NCBI GenBank assembly: GCA_013152275.1
Contig: JAADGS010000090.1
Span: forward strand, 1 to 64,000
Source: Actinomycetota bacterium
GTDB taxonomy: Bacteria; Actinomycetota; Acidimicrobiia; Spongiisociales; UBA4744
Length of the DNA: 64,000 bases
Direction: 5' to 3'
Shown: positions 9,099 to 40,454 of the stretch, in pieces
How positions within the stretch are numbered: the first letter of the stretch is position 1
Layout of the letters: every line of letters begins with the position of its first letter
Notes under the pieces: model-generated
What the model was told of the DNA's origin: nothing
The model's input: only the letters and a program-made list of their open reading frames with translations
The model's database searches: none
Program-made: the position numbers and the translations under genes

Positions 9099-10523
9099 CT
9101 ACGCCTCGTAGATCGCCTGCAGTTCCGAGTAGAAAGCCAACGCGACCACACCCTGTTCCCTCCACCCATAGCCACTGGCCTTCATTCCCCCGAAGGGCGC
9201 ATGTAGCTCGACACCGGAGGTGGGGCGATTCACAACCACGACGCCGGCCTCGATCTCTGCTTCGAATCTCGCTGCCGACGCGAGACTCGCGGTGTGGATG
9301 GCGGCCGACAAGCCGAACGGGGTTGCGTTGGCGCTGGCGATCGCATGATCGAGATCGCGAACCGCCTCCAGCACCAAGACCGGGCCGAACACCTCGTCGC
9401 AGCCGAGGTCGACGTCGGCGGGCACACCGGCCACGATGGTCGGCACGACGACGCCGCCATCACCCTCCGCACCCCCACAGATGAGCTCTGCCCCGGCTTC
9501 GACCGCCTCGCGAATCGACGCCCTCACGGCATCGGCGGCGCTCCGGCTGATGAGGGGCCCGACCAAGGTGGATCGATCGAGGGGATCTCCGGGGACCATC
9601 CGTTCGGCGGCCCCCGACAAGAGTGATCGAACATGGCCATACACGGAGTCTTGAATGAGCGCCCTCCGGGTGGCGGTGCACTTCTGCCCTGCGTAGCCGA
9701 ACGCCCCCGAGGCCACCGCCGCAGCCGCCGCCTCCAGGTTGGCGTCGGCGAGGACGATTGCCGGGTTCCGACCCCCCAACTCGGTCTGTATGCGGATGCC
9801 CCTCTCGGCGCAGGCCACCCGCAGCACCCGACCAACCTCGACAGAGCCCGTGAAGCTCACCCCGCGGATGTTCGGATCGCCCACCAAAGCATCTGCAACG
9901 ACGGATCCCCTGCCCGTAACGAGCGCAACCAATCCGTCGGGGATCGGCGCCTCCTCAACGCATTCCATCAGTACGGTCGCCACGCCGGCACCGGCGGTGG
10001 CCGGCTTGAGAACCACGCCGTTCCCGGCGACGAGCGCGGGCGCCATCTTCCACGCCGGAATGGCCAGCGGGAAGTTCCATGGCGTTATGAGACCCACGAC
10101 GCCCAGGGGCCGCCGTCGACTGAACACTCGCATCGACGGAACCGGGCCTTGGAGAACCTCGCCGGTGCCGATGCGAAGCATGCTCGCATAGAACCGGAAG
10201 ATGGCGACAGTCCGGGCCACCTCACCTTCTGCCTCAACGATAGGTTTGCCAACCTCCCGTGCCAGAAGGGGAGCAAGGTCATCTCGCCGCTCGAGCTCGT
10301 CCGCGATCGAGCGAAGTGCCAACTCCCGATCCGCCAGCGGGAGCGCGACCCATTCTCTCTGTGCATGAACCGCGGTCTCACATGCCAGCGCGACATCCTT
10401 CCGAGAAGCCTCCCGCACGGCTTTGAGAGGCTCCCCCGTCCAAGGCTCGGTGCGCTCGATGAGAGCGCCACCTTCGGAGGACCAATCGTGGATACGACTG
10501 TTGATAACGGCTGCTCGTGTCAC
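9099..10523 (-). CDS. Aldehyde dehydrogenase (KGSADH/AldH-like)
   Basis: ITPWNFP, FTGSVEVG, ELGGRNP, GQKCTAT, EVFGP, PFGGMKASG; GTG start 10523 chosen from a GGAG SD. Confidence 0.9.
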   Translation of the reverse strand: MTRAAVINSRIHDWSSEGGALIERTEPWTGEPLKAVREASRKDVALACETAVHAQREWVALPLADRELALRSIADELERRDDLAPLLAREVGKPIVEAEGEVARTVAIFRFYASMLRIGTGEVLQGPVPSMRVFSRRRPLGVVGLITPWNFPLAIPAWKMAPALVAGNGVVLKPATAGAGVATVLMECVEEAPIPDGLVALVTGRGSVVADALVGDPNIRGVSFTGSVEVGRVLRVACAERGIRIQTELGGRNPAIVLADANLEAAAAAVASGAFGYAGQKCTATRRALIQDSVYGHVRSLLSGAAERMVPGDPLDRSTLVGPLISRSAADAVRASIREAVEAGAELICGGAEGDGGVVVPTIVAGVPADVDLGCDEVFGPVLVLEAVRDLDHAIASANATPFGLSAAIHTASLASAARFEAEIEAGVVVVNRPTSGVELHAPFGGMKASGYGWREQGVVALAFYSELQAIYEA

Positions 10524-10628
10524 ACTACGCTCCAATCTGGCCTGCTTGCTCGGTTCCTGCTCGTCCCTTCGAATCCCGCCGGTCTGTGTCCTGCCGAGCG
10601 ATGGATGCGACAACGTGGCTCTCGGTGG

Positions 10629-11687
10629 CTATCCCATCACTTCAGGCGGCAGGGAGATCCGAGATCTCTGTGGTGATGACCTCCTTGACAGGTCGAATCG
10701 GCTCGAGTCGATTTCAACACGGATTCCTTCTCGCGCGGAGGCGTAGGCGGCTTCGATGATCTGCACGATCCGGCGGCCGTCGGCACCTGTCACCGGAGGC
10801 TCCGTCCCGTTCGCCACCGCGGCACAGAACGCGTCCACGGACACCTTGACCGACCCGGCCCAGTCGTTGGCCGAATCACGCTCCGTCCAGGTGCCGTTGC
10901 GCCACACCCGGAGAGCCGGGCCGGTGGCAAAGCCTTCGAAAAGGGCCTCACATCCGGCCACTCGGGCGATCGCCTCGGTGCCGACCACCTCGATCTGATC
11001 GTCGAACAGGCCGGCCGGGCCCCCATAGGTCGCATCGATCGTGCCGATCGCACCCGTGGCGAACTCGAACAGGATCGAGTATCGGTCCTCACTTCCCGGA
11101 CGGTCCATCACTGCAGTGACGGCGGTGATCGGCCCTCCCAGCGCCTCGAGTACGTAGACGCGGTGAACCCCGGCGTCCATGAGGAGACCACCGCCGGCCT
11201 GAGCGGGGTTCGATCGCCATCCACCGTACTTGCCCCCGATCGCAAGCCTCGCCCGGATCGTCAGCACGTCCCCGAGATCCCCCCGCTCGAGCATTCCGGC
11301 GAGCCTACGATGCGGCTCATAGAACAACTGGTTGTGCGACACTCCGACACTGCGACCTGCGTCCGCTGCGACGGCCAGGATCTGGTCGCACTCGGCAACG
11401 GACATCGCCATCGGCTTCTCGAGCAATACGTGCCGTCCGGCCGCCAGGGCCCGTAACGCGTGGGACGCATGGAGGTGGTGTGGCAGGCAGATATCGACAA
11501 CCTCGATGTCATCGTCTGCGAGCAACTCGTCGAGCGACGAGGCCACCCGCCCATCGCCCCGAGACCGTTCCATGAGATCCGCATCGAGATCGCAGACAGT
11601 CACCGGTCCAACATGTGCCGATTCGCGCAGTCCGGCGAGATGGACCTGGCCGATCTCCCCGAGACCGATCAGGCCGACACCCACCAT
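10629..11687 (-). CDS. Gfo/Idh/MocA family oxidoreductase
   Basis: GLIGLGEIG, HVLLEKPMA, GGGLLMDAGVH. Confidence 0.92.
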   Translation of the reverse strand: MVGVGLIGLGEIGQVHLAGLRESAHVGPVTVCDLDADLMERSRGDGRVASSLDELLADDDIEVVDICLPHHLHASHALRALAAGRHVLLEKPMAMSVAECDQILAVAADAGRSVGVSHNQLFYEPHRRLAGMLERGDLGDVLTIRARLAIGGKYGGWRSNPAQAGGGLLMDAGVHRVYVLEALGGPITAVTAVMDRPGSEDRYSILFEFATGAIGTIDATYGGPAGLFDDQIEVVGTEAIARVAGCEALFEGFATGPALRVWRNGTWTERDSANDWAGSVKVSVDAFCAAVANGTEPPVTGADGRRIVQIIEAAYASAREGIRVEIDSSRFDLSRRSSPQRSRISLPPEVMG

Positions 11688-12472
11688 CAGGCGGCTCCCG
11701 GGACAAGGGCGCGCACCTGGTCCATCGCGAGCCGCGCCGCCGCGACGGGGTCGTTTCCGAGCACCTGGTCGAGGTACCGATAGGCCTCGAACTCGACCGA
11801 GAGCGGGCCCGTGTACCCGGTGTCATCGAGCGCCGTGAAGAACTCCGGCCACGGCACCTTGCCTTCGCCGAGCAGACAGAACAGGAAGTCCTCGCCCTCT
11901 ATGCCCGGCGCTCCGAACGCGTCCTTGAGGTGGACGTGGACGATTCGATCGCCTACCTCACGTACGAAACCGGGGATGTCGTCATTCTCCATCACGAAGT
12001 GGCTCGGATCGAAGTTGACCGCGCAGGGAACCTCGGCAAGCACCCTGCGCATCGTGGCCGCGTCGTGGGCCAGGGTGCCCCAACAGGGCTCCAAGGCAAC
12101 CTTCACACCGAGAGGCTCGGCGTAGGCGCAGGCGGCCTCCAGTGCCCGGAGCGAGTCGGTCCAAGCGGCTTCATCGTGGCGCGCCGCGGCGCCGTCCTCC
12201 CACAGGTTTGGGCCGGTGAGCACGTTGACCGTCGGCACACTGCGCCGCGCGGCCACGTCGATCGCCGACTTGGTGCGCTCGAGTCCGCCGACGGGGTCCG
12301 TGACCAGATCTTGCTGGCACGCGATGGCACACGCCGGTTCGACGAAGTCGTCGATGTGCGCCATGGTCCACTCGATGCTGTCGTAGCCCGCTCCGGTGAT
12401 CGCCGCAGCGACCTCATCGGCCGGCATCGTGGCAAAGCCGATCTCGGCAAGGAACGCGATGGGGCGTCTCAC
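11687..12472 (-). CDS. Sugar phosphate isomerase/epimerase (xylose-isomerase-like TIM barrel)
   Basis: VALEP, NFDPSH, HVHLKD, LSVEFE metal ligands. Confidence 0.9.
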   Translation of the reverse strand: MRRPIAFLAEIGFATMPADEVAAAITGAGYDSIEWTMAHIDDFVEPACAIACQQDLVTDPVGGLERTKSAIDVAARRSVPTVNVLTGPNLWEDGAAARHDEAAWTDSLRALEAACAYAEPLGVKVALEPCWGTLAHDAATMRRVLAEVPCAVNFDPSHFVMENDDIPGFVREVGDRIVHVHLKDAFGAPGIEGEDFLFCLLGEGKVPWPEFFTALDDTGYTGPLSVEFEAYRYLDQVLGNDPVAAARLAMDQVRALVPGAA

Positions 12473-13812
12473 GACATCGCCCCCGCATCGGTGAGCGCGG
12501 CCTCGAAGCGATCGACCATCTCCATGAGCTCGTCCCGCGTCGAGTTGACTGCCGGTTTGAGCTTGATCGTGTTACCGAGGTTGCCGAACACCGGGCCGGT
12601 GCGCCCTACCATCAGGCCTCGGTCGAGAGCGGCCTGGACGACCTCCGCGGCCTTCTCGAAGGCAGGCTCGCGGGTGGTCTCGTCCTCGACCAACTCGATG
12701 CCGATCATGAGGCCCTGCCCCCGCACGTCGCCGATGAAGCCGGAACGCTCCTGCAGGTCGCGAAGACGGTCGACGATGATCGCCCCCATCTCCTGAGCGT
12801 GTGCCGGCAGATCTTCCTCCTCCATCACCTCGATCATGGCGATGGCTGCAGCGCACGACACGGGATGACCGGACATCGTGAAGCCGTACTCCCATGCTGC
12901 CAGGTTGGCGTATTCGGGTGTTGCCAGGGTCGCGGACACGGGGAACCCGCCGCCGATGGCCTTGCCGAGCACGATCATGTCGGGCTCGATGTCGTAGTTC
13001 TCGCTCGCGAACATCGGGCCGCATCGGCAGAACGCGCCCTGAACCTCGTCCACGATCAACGGTACTTCTCGGTCTTTGCAGATCTCGGCAACCCGCTCCA
13101 TATACCCGTCCGGAGCGGGAATCATGCCGCCGTTCGCCTGGAAGGTCTCGACGATCACGCCCGCGGGCTTGTGGGTGTGCGCCCGCTCCAGCGACCAGTC
13201 GATCAACTCGGCGCATGCCAGCCCGCAGCGTTCACGCTCGAGATTGAGCGGACAGCGGTAGCAGTAGTACTGCGGCACCCTGATCTGGCGTTTCAGGTAG
13301 CTGTCCAATCCCTTGTTGGAGCCCTCGTACATGCCCGGATACACGTAGCTCAACGGGATCGTCCCGAACGTCCTGCCGTGGAACGCCCCGTCGAGGCACA
13401 CGAAATCGGTGCCTTCGGTCGTCCGCATCGCCATGTGCATGGCTCCCTCCACGGCCTCACCTCCCGAGAGGGCGTACAGCGTCTTCGAAAGGTCGCCCGG
13501 TGCCAGTGCCGCCAGCTTCTCGGCGAGCCGCGTTCGCGTCTCGGACTCCCACACCGGCGTCGTGTATTCCGTATTCCCGATCTGCTCCAGCACCGCCGCA
13601 CGGATCTTCGGATGGTTGTATCCGAGGTTGACCACCCATTCACCGGAGATGGCATCGAGGTATTCTCTCCCGTCTGCAGCGGTAACCCACACACCCTGGG
13701 CCTTGGCGATGCCGATCGGCTCATCGCCCATGCTCTTGAGTACGTACCGCCGAGAGACCTCGCGGAGCTCTTCGTAGGATCCGTAGAACCGCAGCAGCGA
13801 TTCCTCACCCAT
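12469..13812 (-). CDS. Class III PLP aminotransferase
   Basis: YLDAISG, SGGEAVEGA, AFHGRT, IVDEVQGAF, PLP lysine in LGKAIGGG. Confidence 0.93.
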   Translation of the reverse strand: MGEESLLRFYGSYEELREVSRRYVLKSMGDEPIGIAKAQGVWVTAADGREYLDAISGEWVVNLGYNHPKIRAAVLEQIGNTEYTTPVWESETRTRLAEKLAALAPGDLSKTLYALSGGEAVEGAMHMAMRTTEGTDFVCLDGAFHGRTFGTIPLSYVYPGMYEGSNKGLDSYLKRQIRVPQYYCYRCPLNLERERCGLACAELIDWSLERAHTHKPAGVIVETFQANGGMIPAPDGYMERVAEICKDREVPLIVDEVQGAFCRCGPMFASENYDIEPDMIVLGKAIGGGFPVSATLATPEYANLAAWEYGFTMSGHPVSCAAAIAMIEVMEEEDLPAHAQEMGAIIVDRLRDLQERSGFIGDVRGQGLMIGIELVEDETTREPAFEKAAEVVQAALDRGLMVGRTGPVFGNLGNTIKLKPAVNSTRDELMEMVDRFEAALTDAGAMS

Positions 13813-15562
13813 CGCTCGCTCCTCCGAGATACGCCGGCTTCGGCAGATCCCAATGCCCGACGTTGATGTTCTCCGTGTCGGCAGGATCCCGGCTGAGACG
13901 GAAGTCGATGAGGTATGGACCCCCGCTCGCCTGGGCCCTCCCGAGCGCCGCGTTCACCTGCTCCACTTCGGTGACCGTCTCGGCCTCGCACCCCATGGCC
14001 CGGGCGACTCCGGCGAAGTCGATCGGATTCGACGACCCGTCGGCCTTGACGAAGTCCACGGCCACCGGCCGCTCCTCACCGAACATGCCGCGCTGGAAGT
14101 CACGGATCGACACCCAACCGGCGTTGTTCAGACAGGCGATCACGACTGGTACGCCCAACTCGGCCGCAAGGTGCAGCTCCTGCACCGTCTGCAGCAGGTC
14201 ACCGTCACCGGCGAGAGCGACGACGGGGTACTCGGGCTTCCCGAGCTTGGTGCCGATCGATGCCGGGAGCGTGTACCCCATTGTCGAGTAGCCGCCGGGC
14301 GACAACCACGGCTCGAACACCGGAAACTCCTGAAAGGCCTGGATCTGGGGATGACCGGCCGACGCGATCGCGATCGTCTCACGCGGCATGGCATCCCGGA
14401 TCATGGCGAGGACCCGGCTCATCGACAGGGTGTCCTCACGCCAACGGGCACGAACCATCTTCCACCACTCCTCGGTACGCCCCTGCACCTCGGCGACGTA
14501 GTCTCCACGGTCAGCCCGCCCGCCCGCGAGGCTCTGCACCGCATCCAGCAGATCGGCAAGACCGGTCTTCGCATCACACACGATTCCGACCGCGACGGGG
14601 TAGTTCTTCCCGATTTCGTATGGATCGATGTCGAGGTGCACGAGTTTGGTCGGTGGTATGTTGAATGATTTGCCCGGAACATACGATGAGGCCGTCTGCT
14701 CGGCGAAGCGCGTTCCGACGGCAAGAATGACATCTGCTGCGGCGGTGAGCGCATTGCCACACGACGTGCCACACGCACCCGTGTGTTGGGCGCACAACGC
14801 GTGATCCTCCGGGAAGATGCCCTTGGACATCATCGTCGTCACGACCGGTGCCTGCAGGTACTCGGCAAGGGCTCGCAGTTCTGCCGCAGCATCGGCACGC
14901 ACACATCCTCCGCCGGCGAGGATCACCGGCCTCTTGGAAGAGATGAGCAACCGGGCCGCCCGTTCGACTTCCTGAGGATCGGGCCGCACTCTGCCCGCAG
15001 GCCGCCGCTCCACCGGCAGCAGAGCCTCGGCCTCGACGGCAACCGACTGGACGTCCATGGGCATCTCGACGTGCACGGGGCCCGGCCGCCCGGTGAGCGC
15101 TTCATTGAAGGCCCTGGCGATGATCGACGGAACCCGGTCGCCACGATGGGCCACGAAGCTGCGTTTCACCACGGGACGCATCAGATTCGAGAAATCTGCA
15201 TCGGCGTGCCGCTCGATCTCCTGCAACACCCCGGTGCCCTCCATGTAGGTCTGCGGACCACCGGTGACCGCCACCACCGGAATCGAATCGACGAACGATG
15301 TCGCCAACCCGACGATCGTGTTCACCGACCCCGGACCGATCGAGGTGACCGTGGCGAGCGGAGAGCCACTCGCCCGACAGTAGGCGTCGGCAATATGGGC
15401 AGCCGACTGCTCGTGTCTGGACTTCACCAGGGTGATGTCACTCCCGCGATCCTTCAGTGCGTCAAAGATACTCATGTTCCCGTGCCCGGGAATACCGCAC
15501 ACATACGGCACTCCCTCTGCGATGAGGTAATCGGCGAAGATCTCGCCGCCCGTCTTCGGCAT
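13805..15562 (-). CDS. Thiamine-diphosphate-dependent enzyme (ALS/IolD/Xsc superfamily)
   Basis: CGIPGHGN, RHEQSAAHIADAY, PGPVHVEMP, ThDP motif GDGD...LNN. Confidence 0.9.
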   Translation of the reverse strand: MPKTGGEIFADYLIAEGVPYVCGIPGHGNMSIFDALKDRGSDITLVKSRHEQSAAHIADAYCRASGSPLATVTSIGPGSVNTIVGLATSFVDSIPVVAVTGGPQTYMEGTGVLQEIERHADADFSNLMRPVVKRSFVAHRGDRVPSIIARAFNEALTGRPGPVHVEMPMDVQSVAVEAEALLPVERRPAGRVRPDPQEVERAARLLISSKRPVILAGGGCVRADAAAELRALAEYLQAPVVTTMMSKGIFPEDHALCAQHTGACGTSCGNALTAAADVILAVGTRFAEQTASSYVPGKSFNIPPTKLVHLDIDPYEIGKNYPVAVGIVCDAKTGLADLLDAVQSLAGGRADRGDYVAEVQGRTEEWWKMVRARWREDTLSMSRVLAMIRDAMPRETIAIASAGHPQIQAFQEFPVFEPWLSPGGYSTMGYTLPASIGTKLGKPEYPVVALAGDGDLLQTVQELHLAAELGVPVVIACLNNAGWVSIRDFQRGMFGEERPVAVDFVKADGSSNPIDFAGVARAMGCEAETVTEVEQVNAALGRAQASGGPYLIDFRLSRDPADTENINVGHWDLPKPAYLGGASDG

Positions 15563-15621: not shown

Positions 15622-16515
15622 TCACCTCCCCGCCGCCGCCGCGACCCGGCCCGCAAACGTCGCCGCCGAACCAGGATCCAACTCCCAATCGATGACGATC
15701 TCCTTGCGAACACCGACCAGAAGATCGCCATCGATCGCAATGGCTCCCGGATGAACGAGGACATCCACGCCCTCGAACGGCGCATCGCCGTCGAGATCCG
15801 GTGCGAGGATCGTCCCCGCGTAGTACTGACTCACCAGCGCCCTCACCCGCTCCACCCCACGCGGGGTCGGAGCCACCACCGCCGCAACGGCCGACGGCGA
15901 GATCATCGCCAACTGGCGCAGCACAGAGCGCGGTGGGATGAAGTTCAGATCGACGACCCGGTTGAGATCACATGACAGCTCCGCGAGATCGGCCAGGTGG
16001 AATACCGGAGTCGCCACGACATCGATCTCGTCCGCCCATCCAGGCGTCAGCTCGTCGAAGAGCAACGGCCTCAGGGCGACACCGGTGGTGTTCTCGACCA
16101 GCGGAGTCATGTGGTCCAGGTCGTATCGGTTGCACTCGACGAACGCCACTGCACCGACACCCCTCCCGCCGACCGCGAGCGCGGACTCGAACAGCTCCTG
16201 GATCCGCGCCGGACCGAGGCCGGCGCGCCGGGCGGTGAGGACGGCATCGCGTACGACGCGCTCCACCTCGTCATGGCCGAGTTCGGGGGCTGCACCGGCG
16301 TTCACCAGGAAGGCCCCGCGTCGCGGTTCCGTCCGCACCAGGCCGTGACGCGACAGCCGCCGGATGGCACGATTCACCGTGCTCGGGTTCGATCCGAGCT
16401 CCTCGGCGAGCACCCGGCACGACGGCAACTTCGCGCCGACCTCGATGATGCCTGCACCGATCCGTTCCAGCAGGGCAACATAGACCTCGTCGACACCCGC
16501 AACTCGAACGTTCAT
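15622..16515 (-). CDS. GntR-family regulator with extended C-terminal domain
   Basis: HTH KLPSCRVLAEELGSNPSTVNRAIRRL..G.V....RRGAF; C-domain begins VAFVECN; ATG at 16515 (the ORF-track N-terminal extension is spurious). Confidence 0.85.
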   Translation of the reverse strand: MNVRVAGVDEVYVALLERIGAGIIEVGAKLPSCRVLAEELGSNPSTVNRAIRRLSRHGLVRTEPRRGAFLVNAGAAPELGHDEVERVVRDAVLTARRAGLGPARIQELFESALAVGGRGVGAVAFVECNRYDLDHMTPLVENTTGVALRPLLFDELTPGWADEIDVVATPVFHLADLAELSCDLNRVVDLNFIPPRSVLRQLAMISPSAVAAVVAPTPRGVERVRALVSQYYAGTILAPDLDGDAPFEGVDVLVHPGAIAIDGDLLVGVRKEIVIDWELDPGSAATFAGRVAAAAGR

Positions 16516-17498
16516 GCCACCCTCCCCATCAGGAGTGTGACGGGCTCGGGAACCTCCACGGCACGGACTTCCTGCAAACCCGCCGCCTCGAGCATGGACC
16601 GCAGCGTCGCGAGCGGATAGGCGGCGCCACCGGTCTCGACACGCATCATCACATCGAACAAGGGTCCGAAGGCGCCCGGCCCCACATCCCCGGCGAAGTC
16701 GTTCACGACGACGGTGCCCCCCGAACGCACCGCCGAGCAGACCCTGCGGAGCAGATCGACCCCTTCCTCCTCGGACAGGTCGTGGACCATGTGTGAGACG
16801 AGGGCGGCGTCGACGCTGCCGGCATCGACTCCGCACGATGGGGCCGTCATCACGTCGACTGCGATCAACTCGATGGACACGTCCGGGAGCGTGTTCAGAC
16901 GCCGCTCCAACGCTTCGATCACCGGCGGCAGGTCCACCAGCACGACGGCCGAGCCCGCCTCGGCGAGGCGGAACGCGAAATACCCGAAACCACCGCCGAC
17001 GTCGAGGACCCGCCGGCCGGGTGCAAGCTCGGGGAGGTCCCACGGTCTGGGACCGGTGTGCTCGGCGAGGACGTTCAGTGCATCGAGGAACATGTGTGCG
17101 GTCGCCGGATCGGAGGCGAGGCGGCTCTTCCACGGTTCGAGTGCCGGCCGGCCCGTTCTCACCACGTCGCCGAGTGACAGCCAGGCCCTGGCAAAGTACT
17201 CCTCCTTCTCGATCACCAAAGCGAGGTCCCGGCCACCTGCCATGTGGGCGGCGACGAAGGGAGTGGTCGCGAAACGGCCACCATCCTCGACGGCGAGACC
17301 GATACCGGCGAGGGAGCGCAGCAGTGCTCCCAGGGCTGCGGCATCGACTCCGATGGTCGCCGCCATGTCGGCAACGTCGCACGGCTCACTGGTCAGGTTC
17401 TCGAACACGCCGAGGCGTCGTGCCGCCATGACCACCATGGCGGGCTGATACCCGGTGAGTAGGTCGATGAACCCGAAGACGTCGGTAATCTCGCTCAC
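16512..17498 (-). CDS. SAM-dependent methyltransferase (ASMT/Methyltransf_2 type with dimerisation domain)
   Basis: AARRLGVFENL dimerisation HTH; VLDVGGGFG; SHMVHD; GTG start 17498 overlapping the upstream stop. Confidence 0.88.
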   Translation of the reverse strand: MSEITDVFGFIDLLTGYQPAMVVMAARRLGVFENLTSEPCDVADMAATIGVDAAALGALLRSLAGIGLAVEDGGRFATTPFVAAHMAGGRDLALVIEKEEYFARAWLSLGDVVRTGRPALEPWKSRLASDPATAHMFLDALNVLAEHTGPRPWDLPELAPGRRVLDVGGGFGYFAFRLAEAGSAVVLVDLPPVIEALERRLNTLPDVSIELIAVDVMTAPSCGVDAGSVDAALVSHMVHDLSEEEGVDLLRRVCSAVRSGGTVVVNDFAGDVGPGAFGPLFDVMMRVETGGAAYPLATLRSMLEAAGLQEVRAVEVPEPVTLLMGRVA

Positions 17499-23249: not shown

Positions 23250-23270
23250 GGGGCCCTTTCCGTGATTGAT

Positions 23271-23306
23271 GGCCGGGGGGGAATACGGCGTGCTTCCCCC
23301 CCGGCC
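23271..23306 (-). terminator. Stem-loop downstream of the substrate-binding gene
   Basis: 13-bp perfect stem GGCCGGGGGGGAA/TTCCCCCCCGGCC. Confidence 0.6.
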
Positions 23307-26536: not shown

Positions 26537-26562
26537 TTGTCTCTAACAGAGACACAGTCTAC
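26537..26562 (-). promoter_or_regulatory. -10-like box plus palindromic operator, copy 1
   Basis: TTGTCTCTAACAGAGACACAGTCTAC: palindrome TGTCTCT-N3-AGAGACA with TAGACT on the minus strand; 23/26 identical to 38235-38260. Confidence 0.72.
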
Positions 26563-31667: not shown

Positions 31668-31690
31668 GGCCTGCTGTCCAGCGAGACCGC

Positions 31691-32785: not shown

Positions 32786-32921
32786 GAGTTGGCTTCCTCT
32801 CGTGCAGTCGGCCACCGATCGGCGGCACAACTTCGTCAGGGCCGGGCCTTCGATGGCCCGTCTTTCTCCTCACTTCTCTTCATCAGTACTTCCGCCCCGT
32901 CCGGCGGGTGGGTCACAGCCG

Positions 32922-33935
32922 TCACCTCCCTTCCAACCAGGCCGTCAAGTGGTCGAGTGCCTCCGGTAACCCGAGCGGGGTGTCGTTGCCATCGCCCCGG
33001 GCGTACACGGCGCGGACCGCACCCGGTGTCGCCGACCTGCCCTCGCGGGCCAGCCGCTTCGCGAGCGCCGCCTTCGCCTGGCCGAGTTGCTCCACCGTCG
33101 GCATGATCGTGACGACACCCGGCAACTGATCGAGCACGCCACGCAGCGCGATCGGGCCCTCCGGGCCCTTCCGGGTCATGGGAAGTCCCTCGGCCTTCCT
33201 CAGCGCCGCATCGGCCAGAAACGAGCGGTGGGTGAGCCCGGGTGATACCCAGGCGCCGATGCCTGCGTAGCGGTGCCTCACCCGTCGCAACGTGGCGGCG
33301 ATGATGTCGACGAGTCGGTTGTGCATCTCCACGTACGCAGCCCGCTCGTTGGGGCCCCATCGCCACTTCCCGTTACCGAGGTCGATGGCGGTGCAGTCGT
33401 CCCGCTCCGGCGACACCGAGGTGCCCCGCGCTTCGAACAAACCGGGGTCGTCGTAGCTGGTCGCCGGACTCTGCTCACCGCGCCACTCGTAGATGTACGG
33501 ATAGGGCACCATCGCCATGGGCTCGGACATGACGATCCGGTCCAGTGCCACGTCCCCTTTGCGCAGCGGTCCGACGTGCAGCAGCGCAGGATCCTCGTCC
33601 GGGTCGAGCACGGCGCGCAATGGAGCCGGCACCGCCAAGTCGCCCTCCGGCTCCCACCCCGCAGCAAGCAGCGCCCCGTTGATGGCCCGGTGCTCTCGGC
33701 TCGTGCTGTACGGCTTGTACTTGGTGCACGGCATGATGAGCGCCAACCGCCGGCCGCCTGCCTGTGGCGGCTCCCACTCGTGCATGAGGAATCGAACCCA
33801 CGCCTTCACCCTCGGGTGCTCGAGCGCATCCAGATTCGCCTGGGGAGAGTAGATGCACAGGGTCGGATCCAGCTCGAACGGAGCGCGGATCTTCCGCCGT
33901 GAATCGGCGAGACGATCGGCCGGCAGGAGACTCAT
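32922..33935 (-). CDS. Stand-alone DUF5591 / archaeosine synthase (ArcS) catalytic-domain-like protein
   Basis: LIMPCTKYKPYSTSREH resembles ArcS PCSxxKPYSxSxSH; RIVMSEPMAMVP..PATSYD resembles ArcS IVTSPLGxVP..P..xYD; no TGT barrel or PUA domain seen. Confidence 0.65.
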   Translation of the reverse strand: MSLLPADRLADSRRKIRAPFELDPTLCIYSPQANLDALEHPRVKAWVRFLMHEWEPPQAGGRRLALIMPCTKYKPYSTSREHRAINGALLAAGWEPEGDLAVPAPLRAVLDPDEDPALLHVGPLRKGDVALDRIVMSEPMAMVPYPYIYEWRGEQSPATSYDDPGLFEARGTSVSPERDDCTAIDLGNGKWRWGPNERAAYVEMHNRLVDIIAATLRRVRHRYAGIGAWVSPGLTHRSFLADAALRKAEGLPMTRKGPEGPIALRGVLDQLPGVVTIMPTVEQLGQAKAALAKRLAREGRSATPGAVRAVYARGDGNDTPLGLPEALDHLTAWLEGR

Positions 33936-33939
33936 CGGC

Positions 33940-34548
33940 TCAGCCCTCGTCGATGACGCGCAGCAGCATCGGCGTCGGGTTGAAATTGTTGCAGGGGGTG
34001 AGATCCTGGGGACATGCCGAGAGGAGTACCACGAGGTCTTCGTGGGCCTTCAGCGTGATCGTCGCGCCCGCGCCGTGGGCGGCAGGGTCGGTGACGACCG
34101 AGCCGTCCGGTTCGACGCGGTTGTGCATGAACACGTTCCAGGCGGTCTCGCCGTGCAGCTCGTACTCCTCCCCGAGGAGGTCCCTGGCCTGCTCCAGGTT
34201 GCCGAGGCAATGCGCGTGATCGGGGAGACCGTAGTCGTTCAGGTACCGCTCACGATCGCAGCACGGCACGATGATGTCGTGCTTCTCGACGTCGTCCCGC
34301 ACGATGGTGAACACCGGGTTGCGATGATTGGAGAAGACCTGGGACCCGGTCTTCAGCACCACCGACTGATTGCAGGACACGGTGTGCGTCGGCGACATGT
34401 ACTCCGAAGGGTCGTTGCGGAACCAGGCGACGATGTCGCCCACCTGGTGGCCGACAACGTCGACGATGTCGAGCAACTGGCCCTTCTTGACATAGACGCC
34501 CCGTCCCTCGCGTGAGGGGACGAGGACCTCCTCGACTGTCGTACTCAT
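33940..34548 (-). CDS. DUF1989 / urea-carboxylase-associated family protein
   Basis: DVVGHQVGD, HDIIVPCC..RY, HAHCLGNL, WNVFM, LSACPQDLTPCN. Confidence 0.88.
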   Translation of the reverse strand: MSTTVEEVLVPSREGRGVYVKKGQLLDIVDVVGHQVGDIVAWFRNDPSEYMSPTHTVSCNQSVVLKTGSQVFSNHRNPVFTIVRDDVEKHDIIVPCCDRERYLNDYGLPDHAHCLGNLEQARDLLGEEYELHGETAWNVFMHNRVEPDGSVVTDPAAHGAGATITLKAHEDLVVLLSACPQDLTPCNNFNPTPMLLRVIDEG

Positions 34549-34573: not shown

Positions 34574-35767
34574 TCACACATGGCCTGAACCGGGCGGCTC
34601 GGGAATCTCGGGAGTGACCGTGACCGCCCGGGAAGCGGCCGGCGTGTTGCGACTCCGCAGCGCCCGGACGACACCGTCGATGATGACCGCGCCGATGCCC
34701 GGAATGTCGCCTCGTGTCAACGCGCCGCGCGCATCATCGGCCAGCGCTCCCCACGGCGCATCGCACACCACGAGGTCGGCCGGCCGACCGACCTCGACCT
34801 TGCCCGACTCCAGGTCATAGACATCGGTGATGTTCCCCGATGCCCACGCCCACGCCATTTCGGGCTCCACGCCGGCCAGCGAGCACAGCTCGGCCATCGT
34901 CTTGAGGATCGCCAGGGGAATCACCCCGGTGCCGGTCGGCGTATCCGAGCCGAGGATGACCCGATGCTCCACACCGGCCTCTCGGACGGCCTCGGTGATG
35001 TGGATGGCACTGCGAAGATTGCCGGCCTGGACCAATTGGAGAACGAGATCGGTCTCGTTGATGAGGGTGAGCAAGCCGTCGTCATCGAGTGACGTCGGCC
35101 CACCGTTGATGTGCCCGCACACGTCGGGCCGGAGCAACAGCAGATGGTCGACGGTGATCGGTTTCGACCCGGGGATCGACGCCCCACCGGAATGACACAT
35201 CACCTTGATGCCGGCCGCCTGTGCGGCCTTGATCTGAGGCAGCCCGTCTGCGGGGTCCTGGTAGTTCCCGAACCCGAACTTGGCCAGCCACACGCCCTGA
35301 GATGCGATCTCGAGGAAATCCTCGTCGGTGAGCACCGGTTCGATGACCACCGCTCCACCGTGCACCTTCATGCCGTTCGGCCGATACGTATCCCACCAGT
35401 GCGCTGCCGCCACGGCCAGCGCCTTGACACCGATGCGGTCTCGCGGCCGCCCCGGCGTGTGGATCTCACCGGGCGAGATGGCCTGGCAGATCCCCCCGTG
35501 GACATACGACGACAGGAACCCGATCGTGTTCTGACGCGGCGTGAAATCGCCCATCACCACATGACAATGCGAGTCGATGAGGCCGGGACCCACGGTGGCG
35601 CCGTGGACGTCGATCACCCGCTCGGCATCCCCCGCGGCGATACCACCGACGGTCGCGATCCGCCCGTCTTCGATGAGCAGCGACTCTGCCTCGGCGACGG
35701 GCGCGGTGAGATCACCGGTGAGCAATGTCCCGATGTTGATGACGGCTGTGGTCTTCGGCTCGGACAT
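34574..35767 (-). CDS. Enamidase-like amidohydrolase
   Basis: Collinear with Eubacterium barkeri enamidase as recalled: NIG.L..GD, DSHCH..GDF.PRQ, PGRPRD, KVHGGAV, HSGGASIPGS, HINGGPT, D.PTGTG.IP, SRNTP. Confidence 0.85.
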   Translation of the reverse strand: MSEPKTTAVINIGTLLTGDLTAPVAEAESLLIEDGRIATVGGIAAGDAERVIDVHGATVGPGLIDSHCHVVMGDFTPRQNTIGFLSSYVHGGICQAISPGEIHTPGRPRDRIGVKALAVAAAHWWDTYRPNGMKVHGGAVVIEPVLTDEDFLEIASQGVWLAKFGFGNYQDPADGLPQIKAAQAAGIKVMCHSGGASIPGSKPITVDHLLLLRPDVCGHINGGPTSLDDDGLLTLINETDLVLQLVQAGNLRSAIHITEAVREAGVEHRVILGSDTPTGTGVIPLAILKTMAELCSLAGVEPEMAWAWASGNITDVYDLESGKVEVGRPADLVVCDAPWGALADDARGALTRGDIPGIGAVIIDGVVRALRSRNTPAASRAVTVTPEIPEPPGSGHV

Positions 35768-35824: not shown

Positions 35825-36577
35825 CTAGCCCTCCTGTCGTGCCGCCTTCGCCGCCGGCGGGTACGTTTCGTCGAACAACCCCTCTTCGAGACCCTCGAGG
35901 TACTCGAGCACATCGGCAACGTCGGTCACGTCCACGTACTTCATGTGGAGGTCGAACAGAGCGATCTTGTGAGACACCTCACCCCGGTCGAACGCGGCCT
36001 CGTGTGGGATGGTCACCCGCAGGTCGTAGGAGAGGGCGTCGACTGCCGTCGCCCGCACACACCCGCTCGTGGTGCTCCCGGTGAGGATGAGCGAGTCGGC
36101 GCCCATCTGATTGAGATGACTCATCAGCGTCGTACCGAAAAACGCGGACGGCTTGCGCTTCTCGATGAACAGATCATCCGGCAGGGGGGCAACCTCGGCA
36201 ACGATGTCGTTGCCCTTGTGACCCATGACATCGACCTCGTCCTCGGCTCGGTAACTCTTCAGCGTCCACACGCCGAGGTCGAATCCATCCTCGCGCCGCG
36301 GGTTCGTCGTATAGATCACCGGGAGTCGCTTACGACGTGCCACCTCGAGAATCGACCGGATCGCCGGAATGCCCCGAGACCAGGCGACACCGCCGCACGA
36401 GTACCGCCACCGCTTGATCGAATCGAGGATCGGTTCTTCACGATCACCGCAGAAGTTGTAGTTCACGTCGATCACCATTACCGCCGGCCGCTTGCCGTAG
36501 CCGGCGCGCCTGCCCCAGCCGGCAGCCTCGAACACGACCCGGTCGGTGTCGGTGATCACGTCGTCCCAGATCGCCAT
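35825..36577 (-). CDS. Isochorismatase-family cysteine hydrolase (N-carbamoylsarcosine/maleamate amidase-like)
   Basis: G.GKRPAVMVID, K..PSAFFGT, GSTTSGCVRAT (Asp-Lys-Cys triad), FDLHMKY. Confidence 0.9.
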   Translation of the reverse strand: MAIWDDVITDTDRVVFEAAGWGRRAGYGKRPAVMVIDVNYNFCGDREEPILDSIKRWRYSCGGVAWSRGIPAIRSILEVARRKRLPVIYTTNPRREDGFDLGVWTLKSYRAEDEVDVMGHKGNDIVAEVAPLPDDLFIEKRKPSAFFGTTLMSHLNQMGADSLILTGSTTSGCVRATAVDALSYDLRVTIPHEAAFDRGEVSHKIALFDLHMKYVDVTDVADVLEYLEGLEEGLFDETYPPAAKAARQEG

Positions 36578-36580
36578 GGG

Positions 36581-38191
36581 TCAGCCTCCGATGGGCCCGG
36601 TGTACTTGGTGGTCTCAGGGCTGAAGCCGGGCTTGACAAAGGCGTCGTTCAACCAGCGATCCGTGGGGGCCAAGCGCACCGGACTCGTGAGCTGGGCCGG
36701 CGGGCCGGCATCGCGCAGAGTGCGGGGCAGGTACTGCCCGCGAGGATCACCCACCGGCCGCATGCCCGGTGAGTCGTCAGCCCACTCCGCCGTCACCTTG
36801 CCGCGCATGATCGTCTTGATGGGCCATCCGGTGAAGGTGTGACCCTCCATGAGGGACCAGCCGGCCCTCGTGTTGATGTGCTTCTTGTTGACCTCGACTT
36901 CACGCCCGAGGTCGACGATCACGATGTCGGCGTCGAAGCCGGGCATGAGTGAGCCCTTCTTGCCCCACAGGCCGGACGTCTTGGCCGGGTTCTCGCACGA
37001 CACTTGAACGACGCGCTCCAGAGAGCAGCGGTGCTTGTTCACGCCTTCGGACAGCATCACCGGCAAGAACAGCTCCACACGGCTGAAGCCGGTGCGCAGC
37101 TTCCAGATATTCTCGTTGTACATCTCCTCGCGCGACGCCGGCTCCCAGCCGACCACGTGGTCGGACCCCACCACGTCGACGATGCCTCCGGCGAGAGCCT
37201 CCCACAGCGCCTCGATGTTGTCACGGCGGCGCAGTGGCACGTTGATCCGCCAACCGTACTCCGGCTCCGCCCACAGCCAGGCCGGGCCGGTCTGCGCGTA
37301 CAGCTCCAGGCCCTCGGCACGGGCCTTGAGGACCTCCTCGAAGCTGAGACGGGTGGTGCAGTGCTGCAGGTAGAGCGGCACGTTGCCGGGAGTCTGTGCC
37401 GCCAGATACGCGTACGCCCTGACGTGCTGTGCCTCGAGGAAGTCGGGGGAGCGATCGGTCCACGCGCCAAAGTCGGTACGGCCGGCCTCGAGAAGACGGT
37501 CCTCGAAGATGCGGCCGATCTCCCAGTTCTCCGGATGAATGTGGACGATCCCCGGATAACCGAGATGCCCGACCTCCTCCATCACGCGATAGACGGTGCC
37601 GTCGTCGATACCGGTGCCGAGGCCCGCCCTGCGGCTCGGCCAGTTGGTGTCGACGTCGTCGGCCGTTCCCTTCATGCCGCGGGTCTGCAGGTACAGCTTG
37701 AACGAAGTGACGCCGTGCTCCTCAACGTATTGGGGAATCTCATCGGCGTGCTGGTCTGTCTCGAGCATGTAGGTGAAATACGCGTCGACATGGCTGACCG
37801 TCTCGACGACCTCCTTGCCGGCGGGAAACGACTCGTTGAACGAGACGACGTCCGCTCTGGCGACGACCTCCTTGAAGGGCTTGGTGCCGAGCCGAGTGAC
37901 GGGCGCCTGGATGCCCCACGTGGTGACCCCGGCGCAGGCCGCGGCACGTGACTCACTGGTCATGTCGTAGTCGAACGGCACATAGCAGCCCGGGTGGGCC
38001 TCGGAGTCGACGATGCCCGGGAGGATATAGTGTCCCCTGGCGTCGATGGTCTCCTTGGCGTCCGGGAGCAACTCGTCGGGAGCCAACAGAGCGACTTTGC
38101 CGTCCTTGATACCGACTCCGACACGATACCGGCCGTCACCGAGGACGACGGTCCCGTTTACGACCTTTGCGTCGAGAGGCTCGCCCACCAT
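36581..38191 (-). CDS. Cyclic amidohydrolase (dihydropyrimidinase/allantoinase/dihydroorotase family), variant ExH motif
   Basis: PGIVDSEAH, GVTSFKLY, HPEN, QHCT, GSDH, NPAK..GL..KG....G.DADIV. Confidence 0.85.
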   Translation of the reverse strand: MVGEPLDAKVVNGTVVLGDGRYRVGVGIKDGKVALLAPDELLPDAKETIDARGHYILPGIVDSEAHPGCYVPFDYDMTSESRAAACAGVTTWGIQAPVTRLGTKPFKEVVARADVVSFNESFPAGKEVVETVSHVDAYFTYMLETDQHADEIPQYVEEHGVTSFKLYLQTRGMKGTADDVDTNWPSRRAGLGTGIDDGTVYRVMEEVGHLGYPGIVHIHPENWEIGRIFEDRLLEAGRTDFGAWTDRSPDFLEAQHVRAYAYLAAQTPGNVPLYLQHCTTRLSFEEVLKARAEGLELYAQTGPAWLWAEPEYGWRINVPLRRRDNIEALWEALAGGIVDVVGSDHVVGWEPASREEMYNENIWKLRTGFSRVELFLPVMLSEGVNKHRCSLERVVQVSCENPAKTSGLWGKKGSLMPGFDADIVIVDLGREVEVNKKHINTRAGWSLMEGHTFTGWPIKTIMRGKVTAEWADDSPGMRPVGDPRGQYLPRTLRDAGPPAQLTSPVRLAPTDRWLNDAFVKPGFSPETTKYTGPIGG

Positions 38192-38234: not shown

Positions 38235-38260
38235 TTGTCTCTTACAGAGAGACAGCCTAC
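38235..38260 (-). promoter_or_regulatory. -10-like box plus operator, copy 2 (divergent promoter region)
   Basis: TTGTCTCTTACAGAGAGACAGCCTAC, 23/26 identical to 26537-26562; TAGGCT on the minus strand. Confidence 0.72.
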
Positions 38261-38346: not shown

Positions 38347-38919
38347 ATGCCGAGCATCCGCAAAATCGTCACCTTCATAGAGGACGGCCTCACCGAGGCG
38401 GGCATTCCGGTAGACCCGCCGTACCGCAAGGTTGCCGTTGCCGCCGTCATCGAGAACCCCTACGCCGGAAAGTTCTCCGAGGATCTCGGAGAGATCATCG
38501 ATTTCAGCGTCGGCCTCGGTGATCTGCTCGCCGGCCGGCTCGTCACTGCAATGGGCGACCAGGTCAACGGGTACGGCAAGGCCAGCATCGTCGGTGTGAA
38601 CGGCGAGATCGAACACGGCCACGCCTTCTTGACGACCCCCATGGCCGATCGCTTCCGGGAGGCCGTCGGCGGCGGCAAGGCCTGGATCTCTTCGACCGGC
38701 AAGCGGGGCGCCCCAGGCACGACGATCGACGTGCCCCTCGCCCACAAGGATGCTCTCAAGGTCCGGTCGTTCTACGACACGATGACCGTGACCATCCACG
38801 ACGCCCCCGAGCCCGACGAGGTCGTCGTCATCATCGCTGGCGTGAACCGGGGCCGCCCCAACTTCCGTCTTGGGGGCCTGCTACTCGAAGACGTCATCGG
38901 CGAGGACGGCCTCCAGTAA
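38347..38919 (+). CDS. DUF1185 ('amino acid synthesis') family protein
   Basis: IRKIVTFIE, AAVIENPYAG, YGKASIVGVNGEIEHG, IDVPLAHK..RSFYD..DAPEPDE. Confidence 0.88.
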   Translation: MPSIRKIVTFIEDGLTEAGIPVDPPYRKVAVAAVIENPYAGKFSEDLGEIIDFSVGLGDLLAGRLVTAMGDQVNGYGKASIVGVNGEIEHGHAFLTTPMADRFREAVGGGKAWISSTGKRGAPGTTIDVPLAHKDALKVRSFYDTMTVTIHDAPEPDEVVVIIAGVNRGRPNFRLGGLLLEDVIGEDGLQ

Positions 38920-38981
38920 CGAGACGAGTTTCCAAAACGCACACACCACCCGCCACCCCGGGAAGAAGGAGGACAGACAAG

Positions 38982-40454
38982 ATGACGCTGCTACCCGAAC
39001 CACAGGCGGAGTACGGCACGCTCAAGAACTACGTCGGCGGAGAGTGGAAGGAGTCGACGGGCTCTCTTCGGAACGTGGTCAACCCCGCAACGGGAAAGGT
39101 CATCGCCCGCGTGCCGGACTCGACCCCGCAGGAGGTCGCCGAGGCCGTGGCAGTCGCCAAGGAAGCGTTCCAGGAGTGGAAGCAAACCTCGGTGGTCAAG
39201 CGAACCCGCCCGTTCTTCCAACTCAAGTGCCTACTCGAGGAGCACAAGGAGGACCTGGCGCGCTCGCTGGTCCAGGAAATGGGCAAGACCATCAAGGACG
39301 CCCGTGCCGAGATGCTGCGGGCCGTCGAAGAGATCGAGGCCGCCTGTGCGATCCCGACCACCACCAGGGGCTACCAGCAGGAGAACATCGGCCCCAACCT
39401 GGACCTCAAGGTCACCTACATCCCTCGCGGCGTGTTCTTCATGGTCCCGTCGTTCAACTTCCCGGCGATGGTTCCCCTCGAGTACCTGCCGTACGCCGTG
39501 GCAGCCGGCTGCACCTACATCAACAAGCCGTCGTCGCGGGTACCGATCACGCAGGTACGCATCTTCGAACTGATCGACCGGTGCGGTTTCCCACCGGGCG
39601 TGATCAACCTGGTCCATGGAGGAGCCAACGTCGTGAACGCCCTCATGGAGCACCCCGATACCGAAGGTTTCTCCTTCGTCGGATCCACCCGCGTCGGCGC
39701 GGCCCTGTACGCCAAAGCCGCATCGTTGGGGAAACGGGGGCAGGCGGCAACCGAGGCCAAGAACCACTTCGTGGTCATGCCCGACGCCGATCTCGACACC
39801 GTCGTGAACGCCGCGCTCGCCTCGTTCTTCGGAGCGGGAGGACAGCGCTGTCTTGCCGGATCGGTGCTCGTGCCGGTCGGTGAGATCTACGAGCCTCTGC
39901 GCGACCGATTCGTGGAGGCGGCGTCACGGTGGAAGCTGGGGTACGGACTCGATGAGAGCGTGGACCTGGGTCCCGTCGTCACGCATCGCGATCGCGACCG
40001 GATCAACGGCATGATCGACACTGCCGTGGCCGAAGGCGCCATCCCCCTGCTCGATGGACGCAATCCCGACGTTCCGGACTGGAAGAACGGCGCGTTCGTG
40101 GGTCCGACGATTCTCGACGGTGTCACTCCCGACATGAAGATCGCTCAAGATGAGGTGTTCGGCCCGGTCGCGGCCATCAGCCCCGTCGACAGCCTCGACG
40201 AGGCGATCGCGCTGATCGAGCGAAGCCGCTACGGACACTCGGCCATGCTCTTCACCAAGAGCGGTTCGGCGGCTCGGTCGTTCGAGTCACGGGTACCCGT
40301 CGGCAACATCGGCATCAACGTCGGCGTGCCGGCGACCCAGGCGTGGGCGACGCTCGGCGGCCTCAAGGAGTCCGGGTACGGAGCCGTGCACGGTCGGGGC
40401 GAGTCGTACCTGTTCTTCACCGACCGCAAGATCGTCGCCCAACGCTGGGCCTGA
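38982..40454 (+). CDS. CoA-acylating (methyl)malonate-semialdehyde dehydrogenase-like (MmsA/IolA family)
   Basis: FNFPAMVP, SFVGST, AKNHFVVMPDAD, FGAGGQRCLA, GINVGVP. Confidence 0.85.
   Translation: MTLLPEPQAEYGTLKNYVGGEWKESTGSLRNVVNPATGKVIARVPDSTPQEVAEAVAVAKEAFQEWKQTSVVKRTRPFFQLKCLLEEHKEDLARSLVQEMGKTIKDARAEMLRAVEEIEAACAIPTTTRGYQQENIGPNLDLKVTYIPRGVFFMVPSFNFPAMVPLEYLPYAVAAGCTYINKPSSRVPITQVRIFELIDRCGFPPGVINLVHGGANVVNALMEHPDTEGFSFVGSTRVGAALYAKAASLGKRGQAATEAKNHFVVMPDADLDTVVNAALASFFGAGGQRCLAGSVLVPVGEIYEPLRDRFVEAASRWKLGYGLDESVDLGPVVTHRDRDRINGMIDTAVAEGAIPLLDGRNPDVPDWKNGAFVGPTILDGVTPDMKIAQDEVFGPVAAISPVDSLDEAIALIERSRYGHSAMLFTKSGSAARSFESRVPVGNIGINVGVPATQAWATLGGLKESGYGAVHGRGESYLFFTDRKIVAQRWA

Follow-up and report, generated by a model that had tools for sequence, protein, structure and literature searches.

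How queuosine, archaeosine and phage 7-deazaguanines are made and salvaged is well documented. Our survey of mostly open-access literature found no pathway for the degradation of 7-deazapurines. For purines themselves, three strategies are described: oxidation, reduction and hydrolysis by xanthinase. Hydrolysis is possible because fusion to an aromatic five-membered ring weakens the uracil ring (PMC12507026). Here, we describe a cluster of 27 genes located at positions 9099-40454 of a 64,000-nt stretch of DNA from an Actinomycetota bacterium (contig JAADGS010000090.1; the whole stretch is hereafter called the window). These genes, identified by codon-scored gene calls and family scans, are named g01 to g27 from left to right. 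The cluster is an uncharacterised catabolic system, real and widely conserved. It probably degrades queuine and related 7-deazaguanines by an oxygen-independent route to succinyl-CoA, all steps of which we infer. The genes are the following (C5 module: g01-g05, see below):

9099-10523 (-): g01, aldehyde dehydrogenase (ALDH), nearest alpha-ketoglutaric semialdehyde and 2,5-dioxovalerate dehydrogenases, below cut-offs
10629-11687 (-): g02, Gfo/Idh/MocA oxidoreductase, C5 module
11687-12472 (-): g03, xylose-isomerase-like TIM barrel, C5 module, weak IolE/epimerase matches
12469-13812 (-): g04, class III aminotransferase, C5 module
13805-15562 (-): g05, thiamine diphosphate enzyme, IolD/CDH-like
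15622-16515 (-): g06, GntR-family regulator
16512-17498 (-): g07, class II S-adenosylmethionine methyltransferase, GxGxG and H-x-x-H-D retained
17495-19081 (-): g08, FAD oxidoreductase of phytoene-desaturase/amine-oxidase fold
19069-20457 (-): g09, deaminase-type amidohydrolase (HTH, HxxE, D)
20454-21692 (-): g10, class III aminotransferase, proposed preQ1 transaminase
21689-24301 (-): g11-g13, NMT1/ThiY-type ATP-binding cassette (ABC) importer (permease 21689-22465, ATPase 22458-23249, binding protein 23318-24301)
24360-25040 (-): g14, class II aldolase fold
25033-26475 (-): g15, aldehyde dehydrogenase, proposed for the 7-formyl to 7-carboxy step
26775-28121 (-): g16, deaminase-type amidohydrolase, 43% identity to g09
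28106-32785 (-): g17-g20, BMP nucleoside-type ABC importer (permeases 28106-29047 and 29044-30141, ATPase 30138-31667, binding protein 31691-32785)
32922-33935 (-): g21, stand-alone ArcS C1/DUF5591 core protein
33940-34548 (-): g22, DUF1989 protein, proposed cyclic-amidine deiminase
34574-35767 (-): g23, enamidase homologue of a Lys-for-Glu subfamily
35825-36577 (-): g24, isochorismatase-family cysteine amidase, proposed N-carbamoyl hydrolase
36581-38191 (-): g25, cyclic amidohydrolase with E-x-H motif, dihydropyrimidinase/allantoinase models below cut-off
38347-38919 (+): g26, DUF1185 (PF06684), proposed enamine-to-aldehyde helper
38982-40454 (+): g27, CoA-acylating dehydrogenase of the methylmalonate-semialdehyde dehydrogenase (MMSDH) family

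The xanthinase pathway of Clostridia and Bacilli (PMC12507026) resembles the route proposed here: the fused uracil ring is hydrolysed, then hydrolytic and decarboxylative steps follow, without oxidase or reductase. However, it acts on an imidazo-pyrimidine rather than a pyrrolo-pyrimidine and yields glycine rather than succinyl-CoA, and the cluster would add a side-chain funnel. In the nicotinate fermentation of Eubacterium barkeri, the enamidase is homologous to g23, which has DUF1185 and MMSDH neighbours as its sister subfamily does. However, g23 carries a Lys instead of a Glu, and neither nicotinate dehydrogenase nor hydroxynicotinate reductase was found among the 27 genes or the recurring neighbours of related loci of the window type. 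By analogy, the cluster may be viewed as a xanthinase pathway joined to an enamidase step, being a member of neither.

With ArcS and phage ArcS2, g21 shares the exact C1 motif and the fold, but it is a stand-alone protein of 337 aa with large insertions, found in a bacterial catabolic context without dpdA or arcTGT as neighbour. Relatives of the cluster resemble queuosine salvage (Qng1, QueK, QueL, TGT) in carrying a nucleoside hydrolase and a Qng1 whose key residues are intact. Salvage keeps the ring for tRNA, whereas most of the relatives with linked Qng1 are without detected TGT and encode ring-opening enzymes, and no QueL was seen in their loci. Finally, g02, g03 and g05 together with an ALDH form the same family set as in inositol and cyclohexanedione catabolism (IolG, IolE, IolD; CDH), but the C5 module scores below all cut-offs, has an extra aminotransferase and includes an ALDH of C5-semialdehyde type.

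An archaeosine-synthase core in a catabolic cluster

Taken alone, the match of g21 to Pfam DUF5591 is marginal (25 bits versus a cut-off of 26), and motif, fold and hidden Markov model (HMM) relatives confirm it. The motif PC-x3-KPY-x2-S-x2-H, which reads PCTKYKPYSTSREH in g21, is identical to the ArcS C1 motif as given in bioRxiv 10.1101/2023.04.13.536721, and P69, C70, K74, P75, Y76, S79 and H82 are invariant in 30 sequences. The AF2 model of g21 (pLDDT 93.9) matches 2Q07/AF0587 with Z 10.9 and rmsd 2.6 over 137 aligned residues. Among 48,161 chains, this is the only one with Z of at least 8, the next reaching 5.2. Foldseek aligned g21 with the AF0587 core (probability 0.84, E 0.27), and the same chain was the only match of a g21 profile search of the PDB. 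We take AF0587 to be an ArcS.

The NCBIfam matches of g21 are to ArcS only (E 1e-5 and 1e-4, 21-24 bits versus cut-offs of 440-600). Family scans of g21 found no TGT-like, C2 or PUA domain, and its distant HMM relatives include TGT-DUF5591-C2-PUA proteins (18 of the 150 listed matches scanned). According to PMC11298593, ArcS adds lysine to the nitrile of preQ0, also on the nucleoside. Judging by sequence and structural model, g21 is ArcS-like rather than canonical ArcS, and an activity on the preQ0 nitrile is predicted.

Two long 'fusions' of g21 (P0129 and P0180) were rejected as probable frameshift read-throughs. Another group of stand-alone DUF5591 proteins (340-375 aa), to which P0187 and P0240 belong, stands between g21 and ArcS.

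Linkage to the queuosine glycosylase Qng1

A recurring neighbour in relatives of the cluster is a cassette encoding queuosine glycosylase Qng1 (PF10343, E 2e-44), an inosine-uridine (IU) nucleoside hydrolase and a BMP importer. Qng1 is present in 11 of 50 g21-bearing genomes, being 7.8-11.8 kb from g21 in five of the 11 and distant or on another contig in the other six. The five linked cases are G081, G083 and G085 (titled Microbacterium), G099 (Nocardioides) and G071 (Actinomycetota). In G081, as at L070/L124, cluster genes lie on either side of the cassette; in G071, the cassette is the first part of a series of same-strand genes that ends in lower-module genes of the window type.

The catalytic and 7-deazaguanine-binding residues are those named in PMC9881137. 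When aligned to StQng1, the G071 protein keeps F75, K199, D231, Y232, D298, W302 and the terminal Tyr, and three further copies show these motifs, D298/W302 of the G081 copy aside. TGT was not found in four of the five linked genomes, which are draft assemblies (14/14 controls were found). Therefore, release of queuine for tRNA salvage is unlikely there. In the family of the linked genomes, Qng1 and g21 each occur in 2 of 151 genomes. Among relatives of the window genome, co-occurrence of Qng1 and g21 (3/8 versus 12/53 over cut-off) is not informative. The transporters near Qng1 in passages of PMC11130926 are described without BMP or NMT1 terms.

The preliminary description offered three kinds of substrate: 7-deazapurines, aminopyrimidines and nucleoside-like natural products. 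The first is the best supported, since both the ArcS core and the Qng1 linkage point to it.

Conservation and interchangeable lower modules

A g21 profile made from 30 aligned homologues found 192 relatives in the GTDB set, and the best 80 of these 192 loci were compared (up to 10 kb on each side, many ended by contig edges). These 80 include many close kin, five duplicate genomes and two loci from one genome, so that counts are non-independent. The unpublished genomes G034 and G080 (L069) are tally rows only and no specific claim rests on either. By title, the loci come from Acidimicrobiia, Actinomycetes, Chloroflexota and Alphaproteobacteria. With thresholds of 40% identity and half the length, the neighbours of g21 are g22 (49 loci), g23 and g10 (47 each), g24 and g26 (40 each), g14 (39), g25 (38), g09 (37), g16 (35), g08 (32), g07 (29), g15 (27), g06 (19), g20 (15) and g27 (12). 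The preliminary description had proposed an N-heterocycle catabolic system that maps onto no single characterised pathway, to be abandoned if its genes did not co-occur elsewhere. They do co-occur widely, across several phyla, around homologues of g21, the rarest gene of the cluster, which supports this proposal.

Furthermore, the eight of 61 relatives that carry g21 are the same eight that carry the close enamidase subfamily. Relatives add a nitrilase, a deacylase of the histone deacetylase (HDAC) family and a second NMT1-type importer. Orthologues of g05 (at least 53%) occur in 5 of 55 g21-bearing genomes versus 0 of 25 others (80 searched), and are linked to cluster genes in G001, G061, G046 and the Chloroflexia genome G093; g01-g05 is an accessory module. 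A metagenome scan with a distant g21 homologue gave nine loci, mostly of Anaerolineae type. Many carriers are titled sponge symbionts or soil actinomycetes, and there are cultured ones, with records titled Microbacterium aquimaris, Actinocorallia spp. and Kaistia dalseonensis.

The lower modules were tallied in the same 80 loci (40% identity over 40% of the length; loci only, not whole genomes). The window type (g14, g22-g26) is found in 55 loci, an oxygenase type in 14 and a reductive type in two, and no two types share a locus. The oxygenase-type set comprises an HpaB-like monooxygenase, a flavin reductase, an amidase and a PuuE-like protein (below cut-off), to which L102-type loci add a protein that passes the cut-off for the 8-oxoguanine deaminase family. 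We take its flavoprotein to be HpyO-like, which the family scan did not confirm. The reductive set, in loci titled Anaerolineae, combines xanthine dehydrogenase (XDH) with PreT/PreA, and aldehyde oxidoreductase (AOR) and UbiD are swapped in. Across loci, two functions are exchanged yet kept: the aldehyde oxidase (ALDH or AOR) and the decarboxylase (aldolase-II, dihydroxyphthalate-decarboxylase-like or UbiD). By analogy with purine degradation as described in PMC12507026, a shared funnel that feeds three purine-like routes points to a purine analogue bearing a one-carbon nitrogen substituent.

Two other arrangements were observed. In L035 and L038 (~980-9250), a seven-gene run that resembles a CRISPR type III operon of Cmr-like kind interrupts the cluster between enamidase and DUF1989. 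At L098:11020-13790, a g21 homologue is followed by an unannotated 556-aa ORF and a ring-opening enzyme of the AtzD/barbiturase family, perhaps a fourth lower module.

Proposed pathway

After import by the BMP and NMT1 ABC systems, g08 would cleave the CH2-NH bond of queuine by oxidation to give 7-formyl-7-deazaguanine, which g10 would also form by transamination of preQ1. This compound would be converted by g15 to 7-carboxy-7-deazaguanine (CDG). In addition, g21 would hydrolyse either archaeosine base, at its amidine, or preQ0, at its nitrile; g09 or g16 would finish the amide, and the other of these two would deaminate C2. The pyrimidinedione would then be opened by g25 in a xanthinase-like manner to 2-ureidopyrrole-3,4-dicarboxylate, from which g24 would take off the carbamoyl group (2-aminopyrrole-3,4-dicarboxylate) and g14 the carboxylate adjacent to the amine. 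The resulting 5-aminopyrrole-3-carboxylate would be turned by g22 into 5-oxo-4,5-dihydropyrrole-3-carboxylate. The latter would be the ring-contracted homologue of the enamidase substrate 6-oxo-1,4,5,6-tetrahydronicotinate. Finally, g23 and g26 would produce 2-formylsuccinate and ammonia, and g27 would convert 2-formylsuccinate to succinyl-CoA and CO2. Since the fused ring would be hydrolysed directly, no ring oxidase or reductase would be needed. The C5 module (g04, g02, g03, g05 and g01) would turn the aminocyclopentenediol released from queuine into a C5 dicarboxylate by way of a cyclic dione, with g04 as aminocyclopentenediol transaminase, g05 as C-C hydrolase of the cyclic dione and g01 for the last C5 step. 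The pyrimidine-type order of steps proposed beforehand is not retained, transamination being more likely first, on the side chain.

In its most extended form, which we put forward tentatively and rate a little short of an even chance, the cluster would amount to a complete catabolic pathway covering queuine as well as all other members of the 7-deazaguanine family (preQ1, preQ0, archaeosine base, 7-amido-7-deazaguanine (ADG) and CDG) derived from tRNA and phage DNA. The ArcS core would be repurposed for degradation, the C7 variants would converge on CDG, both rings would be opened by hydrolysis alone and the cyclopentenediol would be digested separately, while other lineages would use oxidative or reductive modules.

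If true, this predicts an environmental recycling route for the 7-deazaguanines of tRNA and phage DNA. Eukaryotes use queuine, which is made by bacteria, as a micronutrient. Hence, queuine-destroying bacteria would compete with hosts and neighbours, and many carriers are titled sponge symbionts. Moreover, the proposal gives reactions to poorly understood families: stand-alone DUF5591, DUF1989, DUF1185 and a new enamidase subfamily.

Evidence for individual enzymes

Among the cluster enzymes, g27 alone passes a characterised-family cut-off (TIGR01722, 459.8 bits versus 448.5). The match of g23 to E. barkeri enamidase 2VUN is near full length (E 4e-110) with the metal-site His/Asp aligned. Each examined copy linked to the cluster has Lys at the position of the aligned Glu, unlike four copies of the sister subfamily. 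Enamidase converts 6-oxo-1,4,5,6-tetrahydronicotinate to ammonia and 2-formylglutarate (PMC7356986). The sister subfamily, found without g21, is also arranged DUF1185-enamidase-MMSDH, so that this trio is a unit. In trigonelline catabolism, TgnF, a homologue of DUF1185, helps in the oxidation of a semialdehyde (PMC7913881), and the fold and context of DUF1185 are described in PMC2954203. In four loci without g21 (L026, L027, L028 and L029), a reductase-like gene, DUF1185, a Glu-type enamidase, MMSDH and a branched-chain-type ABC system occur together, possibly an undescribed nicotinate-like route.

The nearest matches of g24 are N-carbamoylsarcosine amidase and an enzyme that we take to be maleamate amidase. 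Those of g14 are Mlr6791 (2Z7B, top PDB match), presumably the pyridine-4,5-dicarboxylate decarboxylase of vitamin B6 catabolism, and, weakly, 3,4-dihydroxyphthalate decarboxylase (PhtC); by analogy, g14 may act on an ortho-dicarboxylate as they do, and the label of its replacement c24 points the same way. The deiminase role of g22 is proposed by analogy with the DUF1989 proteins CgdAB. The methyltransferase g07 is beside g09 and g08 in a conserved position, and its active site is apparently intact.

Several points weigh against a 7-deazaguanine pathway. Concerning the enzymes, the likeness of g25 to xanthinase is one of reaction logic. Canonical ArcS is inactive on free preQ0 base and not reversible (PMC11298593). 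g14 is devoid of two His of the aldolase-II metal site, and its replacement c24 owes its name to an automatic label, other rows saying binding protein. The nearest relative of g13 is ThiY (3IX1, E 3e-35). The scheme offers no role for g07, although this gene is present in 29 of the 80 loci, and g05 scores higher with the acetolactate synthase (ALS) and glyoxylate carboligase (Gcl) models than with IolD/CDH. Concerning Qng1, a genome search found none in the window genome (G000), which has only a weak nucleoside-hydrolase match, does have TGT, and gave no close nitrilase or deacylase orthologue. In the class of the window genome, Qng1 is common (62/401), and the six of 11 g21 genomes that have it carry it unlinked where positions are comparable. 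Furthermore, the five linked cassettes are 58-70% alike and may represent one or two events. At G000:C13:5975-7027, the TGT gene is accompanied in the genome by N-terminal fragments only of QueC; this genome may both salvage and degrade 7-deazaguanines.

Alternative substrates

The thiamine pyrimidine (N-formyl-4-amino-5-aminomethyl-2-methylpyrimidine (FAMP), aminomethyl- or hydroxymethyl-pyrimidine) is an unlikely substrate. It would be degraded to malonate semialdehyde by deformylation, transamination, oxidation, decarboxylation, deamination and hydrolysis of amidine and enamide. Its main support is the ThiY-like g13, in which, however, the ligand-site stretches DWY and YINHE of ThiY read DFV and FWSAE. 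A 5-aminomethyl group would suit the aminotransferase, ALDH, decarboxylase and deaminase; relatives repeatedly carry deacylases of the HDAC family, and g27 is over the MMSDH cut-off. However, no thiamine pyrophosphate riboswitch was found in the window or four related loci. Neither the recurring neighbours nor the 79 singletons scanned include TenA or another thiamine gene, and no TenA was found in G000. The ArcS core, Qng1, the BMP importer, the 8-oxoguanine-deaminase-family member and the C5 module would also be left unexplained.

Another modified nucleobase or an alkaloid, the Qng1 cassette being a passenger or of changed specificity, is likewise improbable. Linkage of Qng1 in only 5 of 50 genomes, the unexplained g07 and the sub-cut-off scores of all enzymes but g27 would agree with it. 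Against this, the ArcS core and Qng1 are independent markers with only 7-deazaguanine substrates in the cited papers, and the position of Qng1 in operons of genomes lacking TGT is hard to explain otherwise.

Other 7-deazapurines (toyocamycin, sangivamycin, tubercidin or cadeguomycin) are quite improbable substrates; in this reading, detoxification would be the task of the methyltransferase. The same logic of ArcS core, nitrilase and amidohydrolases would apply to these nucleoside antibiotics, two deaminases are present, the reductive variant has XDH and the titles of many carriers (sponge symbionts, soil actinomycetes) would fit. However, they lack the aminomethyl group that the aminotransferase and ALDH need, and adenine-type rings need C2 oxidation, while window-type clusters have no XDH. 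In addition, D298 of Qng1 discriminates against adenine (PMC9881137).

Pterins or folate fragments are very unlikely: their fused 2-amino-4-oxo-pyrimidine with a CH2-NH side chain would suit g08, g15, g09/g16 and g25 (C9-N10 oxidation, 6-formylpterin, pterin-6-carboxylate, deamination, ring hydrolysis) and both importers are compatible, but the ArcS core, Qng1 and the aminotransferase would have no role and the pyrazine product yields neither an enamidase-type lactam nor a formyl-dicarboxylate.

The nicotinate, Rut and reductive pyrimidine routes were rejected, their marker genes being missing. As noted beforehand, neither RutA monooxygenase nor dihydropyrimidine dehydrogenase is found among the 27 genes, and PreT/PreA occur only in the Anaerolineae-type variant. 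Vitamin B6 catabolism, considered on account of the best PDB match of g14 and a weak match to a B6-BMP model (118.7 bits versus a cut-off of 400), was also rejected, since it gives the deaminases and ureido hydrolases no role.

Organization and regulation of the cluster

Every enzyme class named in the preliminary description was found at 9099-40454, and its three transcription units match the layout: g25-g16 (-), g15-g01 (-) and g26-g27 (+). Its count of 26 genes is corrected to 27, the GntR regulator (15622-16515) and the class II aldolase-fold gene (24360-25040) having been unlisted. Fifteen of the 26 gene junctions overlap or are at most 4 nt apart. Two larger gaps, 299 nt before g15 and 155 nt in the divergent g25/g26 region, each carry one copy of a palindromic 21-nt operator-like site:

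26537-26557 (-): operator copy 1, upstream of g15
38235-38255 (-): operator copy 2, within the divergent g25/g26 gap

Two matches to this site occur in the window versus 0.02 expected by chance, and the same two are the only sites of at least 17 bits in the 3.07-Mb genome (the profile was built from 11 sites, and training sites score high by construction). More sites precede cluster operons in related Acidimicrobiia loci. The control of the three units by one regulator is well supported, and the GntR regulator g06 likely binds the operator. The profile gave no site at the Qng1 cassettes of relatives, and shared regulation of Qng1 is thus not supported. A search for riboswitches returned tRNA only, and a scan for sigma-70 promoters and terminators gave nothing above chance. 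Cluster DNA is present in sequencing runs labelled hydrothermal vent metagenome, of which those with good coverage belong to a single study, perhaps the source; none of the runs containing it is listed as RNA.

A GC-rich hairpin between g21 and g20 (window 32843-32860) may tune expression of the importer. In the BMP lipoprotein g20, the linker rich in Thr and Ser contains a 42-nt tandem duplication (window 32607-32690).

Genomic setting

The cluster lies between two features related to tRNA-Asn:

1519-1558 (-): copy of the tRNA-Asn 3' end, att-like, beside a frameshifted integrase remnant (~821-1440) and an excisionase-like remnant (~580-730)
52827-52900 (-): tRNA-Asn(GTT), integration hotspot, with an integrase C-terminal remnant (~52600-52720)

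The 40 nt at the 3' end of tRNA-Asn occur twice, 51 kb apart (1519-1558 and 52834-52873); both copies adjoin a broken integrase and are flanked by remnants of integrase and excisionase. The cluster has a GC content of 65.6% versus 62-63% in the flanks, and its distribution is patchy (8/61 relatives; 11/401 genomes of the class). These features speak for the 'island-borne' character attributed to the locus beforehand. In G001, of the same genus, all 27 genes (83-97%) are found directly after tRNA-Asn at the same site, and in G002 the same neighbourhood holds a remnant only (g11-g13, the start of g10 and a short g14 fragment). The site is thus occupied or holds a remnant in these kin, and the integrases are broken, which does not agree with an active integrative island. 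Given the full cluster in G001 and the remnant in G002, the cluster seems to be long established in the genus and immobile at present. It looks like an old, patchy hotspot resident, ancestral in the genus, whose mobility is unsupported.

A degenerate tRNA-like 3' fragment ending in CCA, uncalled by ARAGORN and Rfam, is seen at window 51220-51275 (-) and is perhaps an old attachment site. Between the cluster and tRNA-Asn, window 40715-45364 encodes a PhzF-like isomerase, an acyl-CoA ligase, a thioesterase, an alpha/beta hydrolase and an ORF of PF10706, the aminoglycoside-2''-adenylyltransferase family; the whole stretch is missing there in G001. In this latter genome, the g25 orthologue (stretch 36442-38051, L012) appears to be split over two frames, by a frameshift or an assembly error.

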